A DNA stretch of 23,465 bases from Archangiaceae bacterium (lineage in GTDB: Bacteria > Myxococcota > Myxococcia > Myxococcales > Myxococcaceae): positions 1-23,465 of the forward strand of contig JAYVCD010000348.1 in NCBI GenBank assembly GCA_043750125.1. Reading direction: 5' to 3'. The notes under the pieces are model-generated. The model was not told the origin of the DNA. It saw nothing but the letters and a program-made list of their open reading frames with translations, and searched no databases. This document shows positions 9,399 through 15,980 of the stretch, one piece after another. The stretch's first letter is position 1; every line of letters begins with the position of its first letter. A program made the position numbers and the translations under genes.

Positions 9399-10103
9399 TC
9401 AGAAAATGCTTCCGGCCCGCCGGCGGGGATCGCTTTCCACCACCGGCTCTTCCAGGCGGCCCAACCGAAGTACGTTCTCGAGCCGCGCCAGTCGTTCGAC
9501 CAGCACTTCTTGCTGGTGGGTCAGCGCGCGCAGCACGTCGGCGACCGGGTCAGGAAGCGTGGCGTGGTCCAGGGTGTCGTGCGGCGCCGGGCCGTTGCGG
9601 ACCACGCGGCCGGGGACACCGACGACGGTCGCTCCGGCGGGGACGTCGCTAATCACCACCGAGCCGCTGCCGATGCGCGCGCCTTCCCCGACGACGATCG
9701 CCCCGAGCACGCAGGCGTTGCTGCCCACCGTGACGTTGCGCTGCAGATGCGGGTGACGTTGCTTTCGTTCGACCGACGTTCCACCCAGCACCACGCCTTT
9801 GTAGATGATGCAGCCGGTCTCGATGATCGCCGTCTCGCCAATCACCACTCCCATTCCGTGGTCGATGAAGACTCCGTCGGCGATCTGCGCGCCGGGGTGA
9901 ATCTCGACCCCGGTGAGGAATCGGGCCTGGTGCGAAACCACCCGGGCGGTCAGCGTGCGCTTTCTCTTCCACAGCAGGTGAGCCACCCGGTGCAGCCAAA
10001 GCGCATGCACTCCCGGGTAGGCCAGCAGGACCTCGAGGGAACCCCGGGCGGCAGGGTCATTCTTGAGGGCGGCTTCGATGTCGCGGCGCAACACGTTGAA
10101 CAT
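9399..10103 (-). CDS. cysE: Serine O-acetyltransferase
   Basis: NDPAARG, YPGVHAL, TGVEIHPGA, FIDHGMGVVIGETA, RHP, VVGVPGRVV. Confidence 0.95.
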   Translation of the reverse strand: MFNVLRRDIEAALKNDPAARGSLEVLLAYPGVHALWLHRVAHLLWKRKRTLTARVVSHQARFLTGVEIHPGAQIADGVFIDHGMGVVIGETAIIETGCIIYKGVVLGGTSVERKQRHPHLQRNVTVGSNACVLGAIVVGEGARIGSGSVVISDVPAGATVVGVPGRVVRNGPAPHDTLDHATLPDPVADVLRALTHQQEVLVERLARLENVLRLGRLEEPVVESDPRRRAGSIF

Positions 10104-10154
10104 GGGAGCCGCCTAGCCGACCACGGACCCGCGTGATCCAACAAGGGCCGTCTG

Positions 10155-10202
10155 TTGACCTCCCACCGGCCTTAGTATATTAAGTCTATCGATTTAGTAG
10201 AC
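10155..10202 (+). promoter_or_regulatory. sigma70-type promoter and palindromic Rrf2-type operator
   Basis: TTGACC (10155-10160), AT-rich -10 region TATATTAA (10176-10183), inverted repeat GTCTA-N9-TAGAC (10184-10202) just upstream of the Rrf2 ATG. Confidence 0.7.
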
Positions 10203-10207
10203 AATCC

Positions 10208-10675
10208 ATGAAAAGCCTCTCTCAAAAATCAAAATACGCCCTGCGCGCGCTGCAGCGGTTGGCCCGGGAAAAGGGTCGCGGTCCGGTGCTGATTGTCGAC
10301 CTCGCGAAGCGCGAAGAGATTCCGCGCAAGTTCCTCGAGTTCATCTTGCTCGAGCTGAAAAACCACGGCTTCTTGCGGAGCAAGCGAGGCAAGGGGGGCG
10401 GTTACGAGCTGCACAAAGAGCCCTCGCAGATTCTGTTGGGAGAGGTGATTCGGCTGTTCGACGGGCCGCTGGCCCCGCTGCCCTGCGCGAGCGAGCGCGC
10501 TTTTCGAAAGTGCGATGACTGCCACGACATCGAGACCTGCGGCACCCGGTTGGTGATGCGTGAAGTGCGCGATGCGATGGCGAAGATTCTCGACAACACC
10601 ACGCTCGCAGATCTCAACCGCCGGGTGGATCAGGCCGTGGGCGAGAAGGCGCGCGAAGCGATGTACTACATCTGA
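10208..10675 (+). CDS. Rrf2-family transcriptional regulator with four-Cys cluster
   Basis: LSQKSKYALRAL, IPRKFLEFILLELK, SKRGKGGGYEL; C-terminal PLPCAS..CDDC..ETC. Confidence 0.93.
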   Translation: MKSLSQKSKYALRALQRLAREKGRGPVLIVDLAKREEIPRKFLEFILLELKNHGFLRSKRGKGGGYELHKEPSQILLGEVIRLFDGPLAPLPCASERAFRKCDDCHDIETCGTRLVMREVRDAMAKILDNTTLADLNRRVDQAVGEKAREAMYYI

Positions 10676-10688
10676 TCCCAGGGACCCT

Positions 10689-10823
10689 TTGCCTACCCCC
10701 GAACCCGTTCCCCACGATGAGCCCGAAGACTTGAAAAAAATCCGCGAGGCCCTCGCCGGCCTGCGCTTCGAAAAAGTGAAGGTCGTCATCGAGGACGGAG
10801 TGGTGGTTCAAGTCGAACGCTGA
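10689..10823 (+). CDS. DUF2292/YezD (OscA-like) small protein, possibly C-terminally shortened
   Basis: TTG start after AGGGA; IREALAGLRFEKVKVVIEDGVVVQVER matches the recalled family pattern AL..LRFG.V....DG.VVQIER. Position ahead of sulfate uptake genes is typical. Confidence 0.7.
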   Translation: MPTPEPVPHDEPEDLKKIREALAGLRFEKVKVVIEDGVVVQVER

Positions 10824-10887
10824 CCCGACAACGGGCAGTCATTCAACGACCCTTTTTTGCAGGTGAGCCGACCGGTCAACCGGAGGT
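10819..10887 (+). repeat. Two tandem 21-nt hairpin repeats (putative cis-regulatory RNA)
   Basis: GCTGACCCGACAACGGGCAGT (10819-10839) and GCCGACCGGTCAACCGGAGGT (10867-10887); same fold with compensatory base changes. Confidence 0.65.
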
Positions 10888-10910
10888 GACCCCCACCGCC
10901 GGAGCTCTGT

Positions 10911-11278
10911 GTGTCTCGTTCCCTGATCGCCCTCGCTGTCCTCTCTTCATTCGCCGTCGCAGCGCAGCAAGCCGCTTCCGACTCACCCGAACAAATGGCC
11001 CAACGCCTCGAAGAGCTCGAGCAGGCCCACCGGATCCTCGATAGGAAGCTCGAGACCACGACGCGTTCATCGCCGAGCTCGCAAGCCTTGCGGTCTCGGC
11101 AGAGCGCGCCACCTCCTTCGGTCTGGGGGTGAACTGGTTCTTGAATCGCAACGCGAAGGTGAGCCTCGACTACGAGCGCTCCTGGTTCATCGGAGGTGCC
11201 GTCCCGATTCCTCTCGAGCAGTGGGCCAATCGCCCTGCTGAAAATGCTGTCTTTGGCCGCCTGCAGGTGGCCTTTTGA
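10911..11278 (+). pseudogene. OprO/OprP-like anion porin pseudogene with large internal deletion and frameshift
   Basis: First frame from GTG 10911: signal peptide plus coiled coil ..QRLEELEQAHRILDRKLE. The -1 frame 11054-11278 reads [56 protein letters not shown], a porin C-terminus. The central barrel is absent. Confidence 0.8.
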
Positions 11279-11304
11279 ACCCCCGGATTTCGAGGACCCA
11301 ACCG

Positions 11305-12300
11305 ATGAAGACCCTTCTTGCCCTGCTTGCTTCGCTGTCTCTGACCAGCTCCGCGCTCGCCCAGCGGGCGCTGTTGAACGTCTCGTACGACCCGACCCGC
11401 GAGCTGTACCAGGACCTTAACGCCGCCTTCGCGAAAGCCTGGCAGGCGCAGGGCGGGAAGGAAGTCACGATCAACCAATCGCACGGCGGCTCGGGGAAAC
11501 AGGCCCGCTCGGTGATCGACGGGCTCGAGGCCGACGTGGTCACGCTGGCGCTCGCCTACGACATCGACGCGATTGCCGAGAAGGGAAAGCTGCTCCCCGC
11601 CGACTGGCAGAGCCGCTTGCCGAACAACTCGACCCCCTACACCTCGACGGTGGTCTTCGTGGTTCGCAAGGGCAACCCGAAGAAAATCAAAGACTGGGAC
11701 GACCTGGTGAAGCCGGGGGTGCTCGTCATCACTCCCAACCCGAAGACGTCGGGCGGAGCGCGCTGGAACTACCTTGCCGCGTGGGCCTACGCCCTGAAGC
11801 GCACGGGCGGCGACGAGGCGAAGGCGAAAGACTTTGTCTCGAAGCTGTACCTCAATGTGCCGGTGCTCGATTCCGGAGCCCGCGGGTCGACCACCACTTT
11901 CGCCCAGCGCCGCATCGGGCACGTGCTGATCGCCTGGGAAAACGAGGCGCTGCTGTTGGTCAACGAGCTCGCCAAAGGCCAATTCGAAATCGTCTCACCC
12001 TCGCTGAGCATTTTGGCCGAGCCCCCGGTGAGCGTCGTCGACAAGAACGTCGACAAGCACAAGACTCGCGCGGTGGCCGAGGCGTATTTGAAATACCTGT
12101 ACACCGACGAGGCGCAGGACATCGCCGCGCGCCGCTACTACCGACCGCGAAACGAAAAAGTGTTCGCCAAATACGCCGACAGATTCCCGAAGCTGAACCT
12201 GGTCACCATCGACGAAGCTTTTGGCGGGTGGAAAAAAGCGCAGAAGGCGCATTTCGACGACAACGGCGTCTTCGATCAGATCTACACCGCAGGTAAGTGA
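11305..12300 (+). CDS. sbp: Sulfate/thiosulfate ABC transporter substrate-binding protein
   Basis: [44 protein letters not shown] 11305 after GAGGA. Confidence 0.96.
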
Positions 12301-13145
12301 GCAGCCTCGCATCCACCGCCTGGGTCCCTTTTGCGCGCCGGCGTGGGGTGCTGCCCGGGTACCGGCTCGCGTTGGGCTTCGTGCTGCTGTACCTGTCGCT
12401 GATCGTCCTGTTGCCACTGGCAGCGCTGGTGCTGCGCACTTCGTCCCTGACCTGGGGCGAGTTCGTCAGCGCGGTCACCGGGCCCCGTGCGTTGGCCGCC
12501 TACCGGCTGTCGTTCGGGGCCTCGCTGCTCGGCGCGATTCTCAACGTGCTGTTCGGGGTGCCGGTCGCCTGGGTGCTGGCCCGGTACCGCTTCCCCGGCC
12601 GGGCGGTGATGGACGCGGTGGTCGACCTGCCCTTCGCCCTTCCCACCGCGGTCGCCGGGATCGCGCTGACTTCGGTCTACGCCGAGAACGGTTGGGTGGG
12701 GCAGTTCCTCGAGCCGCTGGGGATTCAGGTGGCGTTTGGCCGACTGGGAGTGGTGCTCGCGCTGACCTTCGTCGGTTTCCCTTTCGTGGTCCGAACGGTT
12801 CAACCGGTGATCGAAGATTTGGACCCTCAGGTCGAGGAAGCGGCCGCGGTGCTGGGGGCCAGCCGGTTTCGAACCATCGTGAGCATCATCCTCCCCAAGC
12901 TCTACCCGGCGATTCTCACCGGGTTCGCGCTGTCGTTCGCGCGCGGGCTGGGCGAGTACGGGTCGGTGGTCTTCATCTCGGGCAACATGCCGCTGCGCAC
13001 CGAGATCGTGCCCCTGCTGATTGTCACCAAGCTCGAGCAGTTCGACTATGGCGGAGCCACCGCGCTGGCGAGCGTGATGCTCGTCGCTTCGTTCTTCATT
13101 CTGCTGGGGATCAACGGGCTGCAGCGCAAGCGAGGCCGAAAGTGA
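12297..13145 (+). CDS. cysT: Sulfate ABC transporter permease CysT (CysU)
   Basis: [48 protein letters not shown]. Confidence 0.95.
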
Positions 13146-13984
13146 ACGCCCGCATTCGGCGCCTCTCGCCCGGGCTGCGGGCTCCGATTGCACTTCGGGT
13201 GCTGATGATTTCCGGCACTGCCCTCTTCCTCGCAGTCTTCATCGGAATTCCGCTGCTGTCGGTGTTCGTCCAGGCCTTCGAGAAGGGCGGCACCGCGTAC
13301 CTGGCGGCCATCTTCGACAAAGAGACGCTCGCGGCGGTGCGCCTGACGTTGGTGACCGCGGGGGTCTCGGTCAGTCTCAACGTCGTCTTCGGCGTCGCGG
13401 CCGCCTGGGTGATCGCGAAGTACGACTTCTTCGGAAAGGGCCTGCTCAACGCGCTGATTGACCTTCCGTTCAGCGTCTCGCCGGTCATCTCGGGGTTGAT
13501 CTTCGTGCTGCTGTTCGGAGCGCACGGGGTCTTCGGCGCGTGGCTCTCGGCGCACGAGGTGAAGATCATCTTCGCGGTGCCCGGGATCATCATGGCGACG
13601 ACCTTCGTCACCTTTCCGTTCGTCGCCAAAGAAGTGCTGCCGTTGATGCAGAGCCAGGGCAACGATGCCGAGGAAGCCGCGCTCACGCTCGGAGCCAGCG
13701 GCTGGCAGGTGTTCTTCCTCGTCACCTTGCCGAAAATCAAATGGGGCCTGCTGTACGGAGTCATCTTGTGCAACGCCCGCGCGATGGGAGAGTTCGGTGC
13801 GGTGTCGGTGGTTTCCGGCCACGTGCGCGGGTTGACGAACACCCTGCCGCTGCACATCGAGATTCTGTACAACGAGTACAACTTCGTCGGCGCCTTCGCG
13901 GTCGCTTCGTTGTTGACGCTGCTGGCGTTGGTGACGCTGGCGGTGCGAAAGCTGATTGAAGCCAGGCAGGCGGGGGCAGCGTGA
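13142..13984 (+). CDS. cysW: Sulfate ABC transporter permease CysW
   Basis: DLPFSVSPVISGL, EEAALTLGA, LCNARAMGEFGAVSVVSG. GTG 13142 overlaps the cysT stop (GTGA). Confidence 0.95.
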   Translation: MNARIRRLSPGLRAPIALRVLMISGTALFLAVFIGIPLLSVFVQAFEKGGTAYLAAIFDKETLAAVRLTLVTAGVSVSLNVVFGVAAAWVIAKYDFFGKGLLNALIDLPFSVSPVISGLIFVLLFGAHGVFGAWLSAHEVKIIFAVPGIIMATTFVTFPFVAKEVLPLMQSQGNDAEEAALTLGASGWQVFFLVTLPKIKWGLLYGVILCNARAMGEFGAVSVVSGHVRGLTNTLPLHIEILYNEYNFVGAFAVASLLTLLALVTLAVRKLIEARQAGAA

Positions 13985-15045
13985 GCGTCGCGGTGAAAGG
14001 CTTGAAGAAACGCTTTGTCGCCGGGGACCTGCCGGCGGTCGAAGACGTTTCGTTCATCGCTCCGACGGGAGCGATTACTTCGCTGCTCGGCCCCTCGGGC
14101 TCGGGCAAGACCACCGTGCTGCGAATGATCGCCGGCCTCGAAGAGCCGGACTCGGGCTCGGTCAGCATCGAAGGGCTCGACTGCACCCAGACGGCCGTTC
14201 AGCGCCGGGGGGTAGGGTTCGTCTTTCAGGGCTACGCGCTGTTCGAGCACCTCGACGTGCGCGGCAACATCGGCTTCGGGCTCAAGATTCAAAAAGTACT
14301 CAAGGCGGCGAGCGACGAGCGGGTCGACGAGCTGTTGCTGCTGGTCGGGCTCAAAGACCTGGGCAAGAGGCTTCCCTCGCAGCTGTCCGGTGGGCAGCGC
14401 CAGCGAATGGCCTTCGCCCGCGCGCTGGCGACCAAACCCCGGATGCTGCTGCTCGACGAGCCGTTTAACGCGCTGGACACCCGGGTGCGACTCGAGCTGC
14501 GCGATTGGTTGGGCGAGCTCAACTCGAAGACCCACGTCACCACGCTGCTGGTCACGCACGACCAGGACGAGGCGCTCGAGCTGTCGCAGCAGGTGATCGT
14601 GATGAACGAGGGCAAGGTCGCGCAGGCCGGCGCGCCGAATCACATCTACGACAACCCAGCGTCCCCCTTCATCGCGTCATTCATCGGCAACGCCAACATC
14701 CTCAAAGGGAAGGTGCACGCCGGCTTGACCGCTGTGGGCTCGATGTCGGTCGCCACCCCGCTCGGAGCGGCCGACGGCACTGCGGTCAACGCGTTCGTGC
14801 GGCCGAACGAAGTGAAGCTCTCGAAGGCCGTCGACGGCGCGGGAGGCTCGCTGTCGATGGCCCGGGTCGAAGCGGTGTTGCGGGTGGGCGGAAATGTTCG
14901 GGTCAATCTGCGGTTGCCCTCGGACGAGCGAATGACGGTTCACCTTCGAACCTCTGAGCTCGAAGCCCTGGGCGTCGGCGAGGGCGATCGGGTGCTGGTC
15001 GATATTGGGAGCGCCAAAGTGTTCGTGGGAGATTATTCGATATGA
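13981..15045 (+). CDS. cysA: Sulfate ABC transporter ATP-binding protein
   Basis: GPSGSGKTT, LSGGQRQR, LLLDEP, VTHDQDEA; C-terminal TOBE-like region. Confidence 0.95.
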   Translation: MSVAVKGLKKRFVAGDLPAVEDVSFIAPTGAITSLLGPSGSGKTTVLRMIAGLEEPDSGSVSIEGLDCTQTAVQRRGVGFVFQGYALFEHLDVRGNIGFGLKIQKVLKAASDERVDELLLLVGLKDLGKRLPSQLSGGQRQRMAFARALATKPRMLLLDEPFNALDTRVRLELRDWLGELNSKTHVTTLLVTHDQDEALELSQQVIVMNEGKVAQAGAPNHIYDNPASPFIASFIGNANILKGKVHAGLTAVGSMSVATPLGAADGTAVNAFVRPNEVKLSKAVDGAGGSLSMARVEAVLRVGGNVRVNLRLPSDERMTVHLRTSELEALGVGEGDRVLVDIGSAKVFVGDYSI

Positions 15046-15980
15046 TTTTTCGCTCAGTCCTCGAGACGGTGGGACGCACGCCTCTGGTCGAATTGCGCCG
15101 GATGGGAGCTGGGCTGCCCGGTCGCATCGTCGCCAAGCTCGAAGCCCGAAACCCCGGCGGCAGCGTGAAAGACCGCATCGGCCTGGCGATGATTGAAGCG
15201 GCCGAGAAGGACGGTCGGATGAAGCCCGGAGCGACCATCATCGAAGCCACCAGCGGCAACACCGGCATCGCGCTGGCCTTCGTCGCCGCGGCCAAGGGCT
15301 ACAAGTTGATCGTCACGATGCCCGAGACGATGTCGAAGGAACGGGTCTCGCTGCTGCGCTACCTCGGGGCGGAAGTCGTTTTGACCCCGGGTGAGAAGCT
15401 GATGCGTGGCGCGGTCGATGCCGCCACCGAGCTGCTGGCGAAGACTCCGGGCGCGGTGATGCTCGGGCAGTTCACCAACCCGGCGAACCCCGAAGTGCAT
15501 CGGAAGACCACCGCTCCGGAAATCTGGGAACAGACCGATGGGCTGATCGACGTCTTCGTCGCCGGGGTCGGCACCGGGGGCACCATCACCGGAGTGGGCG
15601 AAGAGCTGAAGAAGCGCCGCCCGTCGTTGAAGGTGATCGCGGTCGAGCCGGCGAAGTGCGCGGTGTTGTCGGGGGGCGCTCCGGCGCATCACCTGATTCA
15701 GGGCATTGGGGCCGGCTTCGTGCCCCAGATTTTGAATCGGTCGATCATCGACGAGATCCTCACCTCGACCGAAGACGAGGCGTTCGAGAACGCGCGACGG
15801 CTGGCGCGGGAAGAAGGAATCTCTTCTGGAATTTCGGCGGGCGCGGCGGTGGCGGCGGCGCTGAAGATCGCGGCGCGCGACGAGCTGAAAGGAAAGCTGA
15901 TCGTGGTGATGCTGCCGGACGGCGGCGAGCGGTACGTGACCACTCCGCTGATGGAAGAGCTGGCGCGCGCGAAGACTTAG
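15042..15980 (+). CDS. cysK: Cysteine synthase A (O-acetylserine sulfhydrylase)
   Basis: NPGGSVKDRIG (PLP Lys), ATSGNTG, GVGTGGT, IQGIGAGF, DGGERY. Confidence 0.96.
   Translation: MIFRSVLETVGRTPLVELRRMGAGLPGRIVAKLEARNPGGSVKDRIGLAMIEAAEKDGRMKPGATIIEATSGNTGIALAFVAAAKGYKLIVTMPETMSKERVSLLRYLGAEVVLTPGEKLMRGAVDAATELLAKTPGAVMLGQFTNPANPEVHRKTTAPEIWEQTDGLIDVFVAGVGTGGTITGVGEELKKRRPSLKVIAVEPAKCAVLSGGAPAHHLIQGIGAGFVPQILNRSIIDEILTSTEDEAFENARRLAREEGISSGISAGAAVAAALKIAARDELKGKLIVVMLPDGGERYVTTPLMEELARAKT

Follow-up and report, generated by a model that had tools for sequence, protein, structure and literature searches.

Twin bulged-A hairpins downstream of DUF2292 genes: a very probable cis-regulatory RNA leader of sulfur-uptake genes

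Results

The locus and its twin hairpins

The DNA analyzed here, called the window, is the whole stretch of 23,465 nucleotides (nt) at positions 1 to 23,465 of contig JAYVCD010000348.1 from an Archangiaceae bacterium (assembly GCA_043750125.1). It contains a sulfate-uptake locus in which two small hairpins, H1 and H2, lie between a gene of the DUF2292 family and the remnant of a porin gene. A first reading of this DNA (the original prediction) had proposed that the pair controls sulfate uptake at the RNA level. Our results indicate that the hairpins very probably form a genuine and conserved RNA leader, apparently uncatalogued, that regulates sulfur-uptake genes in cis.

H1 (GCTGACCCGACAACGGGCAGT; 10819-10839) and H2 (GCCGACCGGTCAACCGGAGGT; 10867-10887) are each 21 nt long, lie on the + strand, and start 48 nt apart. 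H1, a unit of the type that we call class B, has a GCUG/CAGU outer stem, a bulged A at 10823, a CCCG/CGGG inner stem, and an ACAA loop. H2 has a GCC/GGU outer stem, a GA/A internal loop, a CCGG/CCGG inner stem, and a UCAA loop. The linker of 27 nt (10840-10866, + strand) contains a T6 run at 10853-10858, which begins 13 nt past H1, and the TGA stop codon (10821-10823) of the DUF2292-like open reading frame (ORF) falls inside H1. The prediction had described the two 21-nt hairpins 48 nt apart, the T6 run, the stop codon within H1, and the DUF2292-like ORF, and each of these is present exactly where it was placed. A GGAG at 10901-10904 and a GTG start codon at 10911 follow on the + strand (10901-10913 together), the GTG lying 23 nt past H2.

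Folded in isolation, H1 reached -10.9 kcal/mol (z -3.9) and H2 -9.1 kcal/mol (z -1.4); the 141-nt region taken as a whole was not more stable than its own shuffles (z +0.39). The bare hairpin architecture had 3326 matches in the GC-rich genome to which the window belongs, and 513 when the YCSG/CSGR core was required. Because loose look-alikes are so abundant there, the local hairpin evidence is weak when taken alone. A local test of the pattern (two found, 0.02 expected) was circular, the pattern having been derived from the same two copies.

An alternative hairpin at 10880-10902 (+ strand; -13.6 kcal/mol, z -2.9) shares the 3' strand of H2, excludes H2, and reaches the GGAG before the next start codon; it is part of the minimum free energy (MFE) structure of the 141-nt region. 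It could be a switch local to the window that competes with H2. As a general switch it was rejected, since by eye it is absent from two related loci of the same phylum (L015 and L016).

The genes around the hairpins were identified by Pfam matches, and these agree with the flanking genes that had been named beforehand (Rrf2, porin pieces, sbp, cysT, cysW, cysA, and cysK). A serine-acetyltransferase-like (cysE-like) gene is divergently oriented at 9399-10103 (- strand; Hexapep 2.1e-11, with a weak SATase_N match, 0.0058). The Rrf2-family regulator gene (CymR/IscR-like) occupies 10208-10675 on the + strand (Pfam Rrf2, 125 bits; NCBIfam rrf2_super, 119.8 bits); against NCBIfam CymR it scored 87.5 bits, under the cut-off of 195. 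An AT-rich, promoter-like stretch 5' of it contains, by eye, the inverted repeat GTCTA-N9-TAGAC (10184-10202, no strand assigned), a candidate operator that may be of the Rrf2 type. The word ATCGATTTA of the AT-rich stretch at 10150-10207 also occurs, by eye, in three related loci (L042, L084, and L095), between DUF2292 and the hairpin. On the + strand, the genes that follow the porin remnant are the sulfate-binding protein gene sbp (11275-12300; SBP_bac_11, 3.3e-38), a cysT-like permease gene (12297-13145; BPD_transp_1), a cysW-like permease gene (13142-13984; BPD_transp_1, 3e-12) whose GTG at 13142 overlaps the cysT stop, the cysA ATPase gene (13981-15045; ABC_tran, CysA_C_terminal, and TOBE), and a cysK-like gene for a pyridoxal phosphate enzyme (15042-15980; PALP, 2.2e-81).

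The Porin O/P remnant (10911-11278, + strand) was recognized by BLASTP and from relatives' contigs. Only the N- and C-terminal ends are present, roughly 48 and 46 residues long, in different frames, and about 1 kb is deleted; alignments of the two pieces with the 457-aa porin of L016 cover its residues 42-63 and 412-457. At the deletion, the contig of a relative that is about 90% alike has 1044 letters in place of the 47 in the window, and contigs of two further sequencing runs are identical to the window at 10600-11158. In other contigs, Rrf2 is joined almost straight to sbp. With DUF2292 truncated and the porin deleted, the module looks like it is decaying in the lineage of the window; the RNA element is still intact within the Rrf2-to-cysK operon.

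The DUF2292 protein

The DUF2292-like ORF (10689-10823, + strand) has a TTG start and encodes 44 amino acids. It matched PF10055 with 31.5 bits (gathering cut-off 22) over profile positions 2-31 of 37. A word-index protein search for homologs returned one and an exhaustive search 22. The ORF ends at VQVER, and 23 of 23 homologs go on with a C-terminal TEKxRL; the stop codon lies inside H1 because the window ORF is truncated and lacks this part. The peptide had been labelled as OscA-type, which its score against the NCBIfam OscA equivalog model (NF033785) does not bear out: 27.5 bits with a cut-off of 85, the relatives P0001, P0002, and P0017 reaching 41.7-43.4 bits. Judged by these sequence scores, the window peptide is a relative of OscA and not an equivalog.

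A model of the DUF2292 monomer shows a helix, a beta hairpin, and a basic tail (mean predicted local distance difference test score, pLDDT, 74). A homodimer was predicted with a score of 0.53 compared with 0.02 for the best control, a mark reached by 20 of 30 proteins solved as pairs and by one of 23 solved as single chains; partner pLDDT was at least 70, and the three runs agreed in at least 100% of the contacts. The predicted homodimer fits the two like units found in each leader.

DUF2292 was present in four of 401 genomes of the phylum of the window (Myxococcota) and in none of 40 close relatives of its genome. All four DUF2292 loci carry the hairpin pair, with 40.4, 50.2, 48.5, and 19.7 bits in the tandem covariance model R2 described below. 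The same model found nothing above 26.3 bits in 150 other genomes of the phylum, and the best four matches lay inside long ORFs. Weak R2 matches of up to 26.3 bits were rejected, eight of the eight examined being within open frames of 301-1025 codons. Three loci of the same genus that lack DUF2292 (L003, L004, and L005) had no hairpin (best 11.9 bits, filters off); in such loci, the gene next to Rrf2 is an intact porin (G003) or sbp (G004 and G002).

A family of tandem hairpins beside DUF2292 genes

A scan of genome contigs with the DUF2292 alignment gave 80 more loci. Going by record titles, these belong mainly to Planctomycetota and also to Binatia, Armatimonadetes, Margulisiibacteriota, and a 'delta proteobacterium', and the motif is present in at least four named phylum-level groups beyond the window's own. 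Within the latter, each of the loci L014-L016 carries a hairpin pair of this design past the DUF2292 stop, the inner stems being different. A strict regular expression detected both hairpins at up to 300 nt from the DUF2292 stop in 21 of the 80 loci. When only the anchors were prescribed (5' YYGA and 3' AGG), 67 of 113 candidates showed complete pairing of the 4-bp inner stem, and 11 stem types occurred; with shuffled partners, 16.1 +/- 3.2 were fully paired, and the maximum in 2000 shuffles was 25.

Two covariance models were built, one for the single hairpin (R1, 35 seeds) and one for the tandem (R2, 27 seeds), with the window excluded from both. In the window, R1 scored H2 with 28.0 bits (E 5.9e-5) and H1 with 13.3 bits, and R2 matched the entire tandem-hairpin leader motif at 10816-10890 (+ strand) with 40.4 bits (E 7.8e-8 in 442 kb). 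This pair is the only R2 match above 22 bits in its own genome of 6.17 Mb. These scores, which are independent of the window, decide the case that the local hairpins left undecided. Single hairpins on two other contigs of that genome (C8:4973 and C396:7597) closely resemble the unit, and R2 found no second tandem copy.

Comparable hairpins had been expected beside other DUF2292 genes, and they are there. R1 matched 56 of 84 DUF2292 loci, 26 of them at least twice, with a median start 83 nt past the DUF2292 stop. R2 matched 45 of 93 DUF2292 loci at E<1e-4, co-oriented with DUF2292, and 60 of 93 at E<=0.01. Single-hairpin matches of R1 in whole genomes were unreliable (11 of 11 examined, in genomes lacking DUF2292, lay inside long ORFs), and its E-values are too optimistic in GC-rich DNA. 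Because of this unreliability, a genome-wide table of R1 and DUF2292 co-occurrence was uninformative.

In the R2 alignment, which was fitted to the model and is hence biased toward pairing, 97.0% of the 904 paired cells are standard pairs, and 12 of the 14 pairs change on both sides. Such both-side changes affect 75 cells, compared with 15.3 in shuffles (0 of 500 shuffles reached 75), and control pairings obtained by sliding gave 50% at most. The 24 matches that were not seeds, taken alone, had 316 of 329 cells paired.

Each unit has the design 5' GCYGAC, a variable stem of 3 bp, a variable loop, the returning stem, and GAGGC 3'. The consensus is G-C-Y-G-A-C-Y-C-G ... C-G-R-G-A-G-G-C for H1 and G-C-Y-G-A-C-Y-G-G ... 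C-C-R-G-A-G-G-C for H2. The C-G versus G-C difference between the two copies in the window, taken at first as compensatory change, is real, yet it is the signature that separates H1 from H2 across the family (CYCG/CGRG versus CYGG/CCRG). The NCAA tetraloops noted at first are present in the window, as ACAA and UCAA; they are not conserved in the family, in which the loops are variable, G-poor, and 4-9 nt long. Linkers of 17-33 nt are of mixed composition and likewise unconserved. H1 of the window is a variant with the 3' strand C-AGY, in which G4 pairs with C and A5 alone bulges; the same variant occurs in L042, L082, L084, and L095. Because this class B variant keeps only A5 bulged, a bulged A in a GC-rich helix is the invariant feature. 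The window shares with the family the unit design, a linker length (27 nt) within the range of 17-33 nt, the spacing to the start codon, and the gene company.

Nine further DUF2292 loci came from a random Planctomycetota sample, and in eight of them look-alike hairpins with other stems were seen by eye before porin-like genes. Look-alikes were also seen by eye in distant DUF2292 subfamilies of the HDGRVVQIE type (L135-L143), with inner stems ACGG/CCGT and CCAG/CUGG and outer stems CUC/GAG and GAC/GUC, followed by genes with porin-like coiled-coil N-termini.

A search of Rfam 15, which the original prediction had proposed as a check, gave no matching family, guanidine-II, the PyrR binding site, the S-adenosylmethionine (SAM) classes, and sul1 included: there was no relevant match at E<=10 in the window at 10000-11600, nor at E<=1 in ten loci with strong motif copies. 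A suspected likeness between the purine-rich 3' strand and the PyrR binding loop was dropped, as Rfam showed no such match. In the literature on DUF2292, YezD, OscA, DUF1559 with sulfur, and sulfate riboswitch candidates in Planctomycetes, searched through titles and abstracts with most subscription journals outside its coverage, no description of the motif was found. The DUF2292/YezD/OscA family was mentioned only in passing in the titles and abstracts so covered.

Strand, internal loop, and leader position

With respect to strand, 77 of 79 R1 matches lie on that of DUF2292. In the R2 alignment, the third outer pair of H2 is most commonly U-G (35 U-G, 30 C-G), and the internal loop is asymmetric throughout, with 2 nt opposite 1 nt. 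The strand bias, the frequent U-G pair, and the constant asymmetry argue that the motif acts as RNA and not as a double-stranded DNA operator. The proposal that RNA structure is under selection, first based on the two copies of the window, is now supported by covariation across loci, the strand bias, and the G-U pairs.

The motif also keeps a fixed relation to the gene that follows. An ATG was found 20-35 nt past H2 in 41 of 52 tandem instances, whereas equally sized control windows gave 3-14 of 52; in the window, L015, and L016 a GTG takes this position. The last 8 nt before the start codon are 65% paired in the MFE structures, and 23 of 44 instances have z<-1. This tendency toward a hairpin at the ribosome-binding site (RBS) is clear in Isosphaeraceae and Pirellulales. 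A few loci (L014 and L039) have by eye terminator-like hairpins with T runs instead.

In leaders of the Binatia type (L028, L029, L031, L040, and L075), an extra AUG stands about 5 nt past H2, with the GGAGG of the H2 3' strand at Shine-Dalgarno distance and a reading frame that extends over the main start codon. This AUG may open a very short upstream ORF, or these closely related leaders may share it by coincidence. In the DUF2292 locus of Singulisphaera acidiphila (L033, about 2683-2709), AGG stands where the sister genome (L030) has the ATG of the downstream gene, and the gene behind this leader may be disabled.

Genes next to the motif

Adjacent ORFs were chosen by a heuristic, some being wrong, and no downstream ORF was found at 6 of 56 loci. 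For the Pfam tally of 50 downstream ORFs, eight picks of less than about 150 aa were dropped and eight ORFs were added (seven from the Singulisphaera group and one from G409). The tally included 16 DUF1559 proteins ('SBP_bac_10') with N_methyl, 12 Porin_O_P, two Porin_5, two PALP (cysK-like), one sulfatase, and four CarboxypepD_reg. The commonest upstream neighbor of DUF2292 was cysA, in 43-44 of 78 loci, so that the assignment of the hairpins to sulfate-uptake loci is supported on both sides. The usual order is cysA, DUF2292, H1-H2, and a porin or DUF1559 gene; in the phylum of the window, it is Rrf2, DUF2292, H1-H2, and porin. Control beneath an Rrf2 layer, as first proposed, does not extend to the family: an Rrf2 gene is upstream in 2 of the 78 loci, versus the 43-44 with cysA, and two loci outside these 78 (L015 and L016) have an upstream ORF that ends like the Rrf2 of the window. 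The Rrf2 layer is lineage-specific on these counts.

S. acidiphila (G405) has three tandem leaders without DUF2292, at 9379722-9379805, 95607-95683, and 4959446-4959517 (also labelled L099, L111, and L103). Each of them precedes a DUF1559/N_methyl gene of about 400 aa, which suggests that some of the many DUF1559 proteins of Planctomycetes belong to a sulfur regulon.

Discussion

Proposed mechanism

The sequence structure, strand, position, and gene company of the motif were observed directly, and they can be joined in one model. H1 and H2 would be the sensor part of a conserved cis-acting leader of the mRNA, and the twin bulged-A units would be two binding sites for a dimeric factor acting in trans. 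The best candidate for this factor is the small protein of the DUF2292/OscA family encoded directly upstream on the same strand. Once bound, it would alter the fold of the short segment containing the RBS or, in some lineages and judging by eye, a terminator-like hairpin. Expression of the downstream gene, through translation or termination, would be set in this way once the sulfate-uptake operon has been switched on. We tentatively favor H1 and H2 as twin binding sites for a dimeric DUF2292 protein, binding of the small protein being one of the two mechanisms offered by the original prediction, and we regard this as finely balanced, with doubt slightly ahead. The homodimer is a prediction of structure modelling; DUF2292 is a putative binder, and the effect could be activation or repression.

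Several observations weigh against this assignment. No known RNA-binding fold emerged when the DUF2292 model was compared to the PDB with Foldseek (best E 1.3), a PDB sequence search gave no solved relative, and the conserved basic tail is missing from the DUF2292 of the window. In S. acidiphila, a single DUF2292 gene stands against four tandem loci, three of them without an upstream DUF2292, which could be explained by action in trans. One genome, G412, from a Planctomycetota sample taken at a minimum completeness of 90, has a tandem motif (32.6 bits) ahead of a porin-like gene, and DUF2292 was not detected there (PF10055, nothing; DUF2292 alignment profile, best E 0.74). Its leader (L148, G412:C159:9747-9814) has a UCC/GGA outer stem in H1, a compensatory change. 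In addition, 28 of 84 DUF2292 loci had no R1 match, and the third hairpin, at the RBS, is moderately supported (mean z -0.87) and weak in Binatia. Because DUF2292 and the motif are neighbors, a single insertion or deletion could also add or remove both at once.

Alternative explanations

The main rival, which we consider rather unlikely, is a protein-free riboswitch in which the bulged-A/G.A loops, singly or jointly, bind a small ligand that reports sulfur status, such as sulfate, thiosulfate, sulfide, cysteine, O- or N-acetylserine, adenosine 5'-phosphosulfate (APS), or its 3'-phosphorylated form (PAPS), and so switch the RBS hairpin or the terminator. A conserved sensor joined to platforms that depend on the lineage, mostly RBS hairpins, with the terminator-like hairpins and T runs of L014 and L039 by eye, would suit such a device. 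So would the conserved nucleotides in and around the internal loop while loops and linker vary freely, and the presence of the motif in G412 and at the three DUF2292-less loci of G405. Two similar mini-hairpins with a variable linker are also reminiscent of guanidine-II. The conserved core is however very small, one bulged A and a G.A pair, and in the class B units of the window, L042, L082, L084, and L095 the G.A pair is replaced by G-C (A to C and G to A in the 3' strand). Because class B units replace the G.A pair, a tight ligand pocket is hardly compatible with them. The strong and specific adjacency of the motif to one small protein family also speaks against a sensor that needs no protein. 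In its narrower form, a tandem riboswitch for a sulfur compound that is inorganic or stands early in the pathway (such as sulfate, thiosulfate, sulfide, or APS), the idea seems less probable again. To our knowledge, no RNA sensor exists for any of these four, and if this form were true, outer-membrane and periplasmic genes for sulfur uptake would be under riboswitch control in Planctomycetota, Binatia, Armatimonadota, Margulisiibacteriota, and the phylum of the window.

It is improbable that the hairpins are an element of binding, processing, or stability for another factor, with DUF2292 a mere neighbor in the same regulon. Such a factor could be an RNase or a global RNA-binding protein, or else the 30S subunit, to which the GGAGG-like 3' strands might offer a place for standby or decoy binding. 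The 3' strands (GGGAGGC or CCRGAGGC) do resemble Shine-Dalgarno sequences, the motif is intercistronic in sulfate operons, an AUG stands about 5 nt past H2 in Binatia-type leaders, and neither G412 nor the extra G405 loci have DUF2292 next to the motif. On the other hand, a generic stabilizer needs neither an invariant bulged A nor a fixed identity of H1 and H2 across phyla. A global factor does not agree with the rarity of the motif: in samples of 151 genomes, only G405 and G412 among Planctomycetota and the window's own genome (G000) in its phylum exceeded 30 bits.

A translation-coupled attenuator, the other mechanism put forward in the original prediction, appears very improbable. A ribosome that ends the DUF2292 ORF would melt H1 and decide between termination at T6 and read-through. 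The arrangement of the window invites this idea, as the TGA is inside H1, T6 follows 13 nt later, and a longer fold closed by GUCG/CGAC ends 3 nt ahead of the T run. In the relatives, the hairpins begin at a median of 83 nt past the DUF2292 stop, the overlap is seen in the window only, where it stems from the truncation of the ORF, and at some loci the motif is present without any upstream ORF; as a general mechanism the attenuator fails. The T6 run fares no better as a functional part: an intrinsic terminator has its U run 0-2 nt after a GC-rich stem, a distance that the 13 nt from H1 exceed; a scan for Rho-independent terminators at 10000-11500 of the window called none on the + strand; and the T run is not conserved in the linker. 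The stop codon within the hairpin and the T6 run are local quirks of the window.

It is barely credible that the units are operators in double-stranded DNA, imperfect palindromes bound by Rrf2 or some other dimeric transcription factor. All of them do form inverted repeats, and the window, L015, and L016 have an upstream Rrf2 gene, but the matches keep to one strand relative to the genes (77 of 79), the frequent G-U pairs would be A.C mismatches on the opposite strand, every unit retains the 2-nt/1-nt asymmetry, substitutions compensate across the stem and do not preserve half-sites, and cysA, not Rrf2, is upstream at most loci. We give next to no credence to a chance pair of functionless GC-rich hairpins, for which the plentiful loose look-alikes in the genome and the local fold (z +0.39) could be cited, against 40.4 bits with a model from other phyla, uniqueness in the genome, and a conserved position relative to DUF2292 and the start codon.

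Significance

The regulation of sulfate assimilation described in textbooks is transcriptional (CysB and CymR), and we know of no established RNA-level sensor or RNA-binding regulator dedicated to sulfate uptake. The element reported here is small, sharply defined, and backed by covariation. It offers three leads: a putative role as RNA-binding regulator for the uncharacterized DUF2292/YezD/OscA family, the assignment of Planctomycete DUF1559 proteins and 'phosphate' O/P porins to a sulfur-uptake regulon, and a new candidate for Rfam and for ligand screening. S. acidiphila is a cultured strain, and its single DUF2292 gene and four leaders make it a ready test system.

Comparison with known systems

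The closest family is DUF2292/YezD/OscA itself (PF10055; NF033785, 'sulfur starvation response protein OscA'), for which we know of no described mechanism. The window peptide is a member of the Pfam family in a sulfate-uptake locus; it differs in falling under the OscA equivalog cut-off and in lacking TEKxRL.

Guanidine-II (mini-ykkC) also consists of two small, similar hairpins with a variable linker, just 5' of the RBS. It conserves an ACGR tetraloop, whereas the twin-hairpin family conserves the internal loop and the closing pairs; ACGR tetraloops were found neither in the window, with its ACAA and UCAA loops, nor as a feature of the family, with its loops of 4-9 nt. The gene company differs as well.

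By analogy only, the operators of the MS2 and PP7 coat proteins combine a dimeric small protein with a short bulged-A hairpin near the RBS, and CsrA-type repression has two sites per dimer. In those systems the sites overlap the start codon or carry GGA in the loop, whereas the twin-hairpin units lie at least 20-35 nt upstream and their loops are unconserved.

Layouts of a small regulator and its RNA target are known from hutP-terminator-hutH, the HutP antitermination system of Bacillus subtilis, and from BglG/SacY and their ribonucleic antiterminator (RAT). HutP differs in that it is a hexamer that binds NAG triplet repeats and not bulged-A hairpins, and in having no relation to DUF2292 in sequence or fold; moreover, most platforms of the twin-hairpin leader look translational, and DUF2292 is a putative binder. 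What the hutP and BglG layouts share with the leader described here is the gene of a small oligomeric regulator (a putative one in the case of DUF2292) immediately 5' of its own RNA target in the same transcript, with the target in the leader of the next gene and a downstream platform that depends on the lineage.

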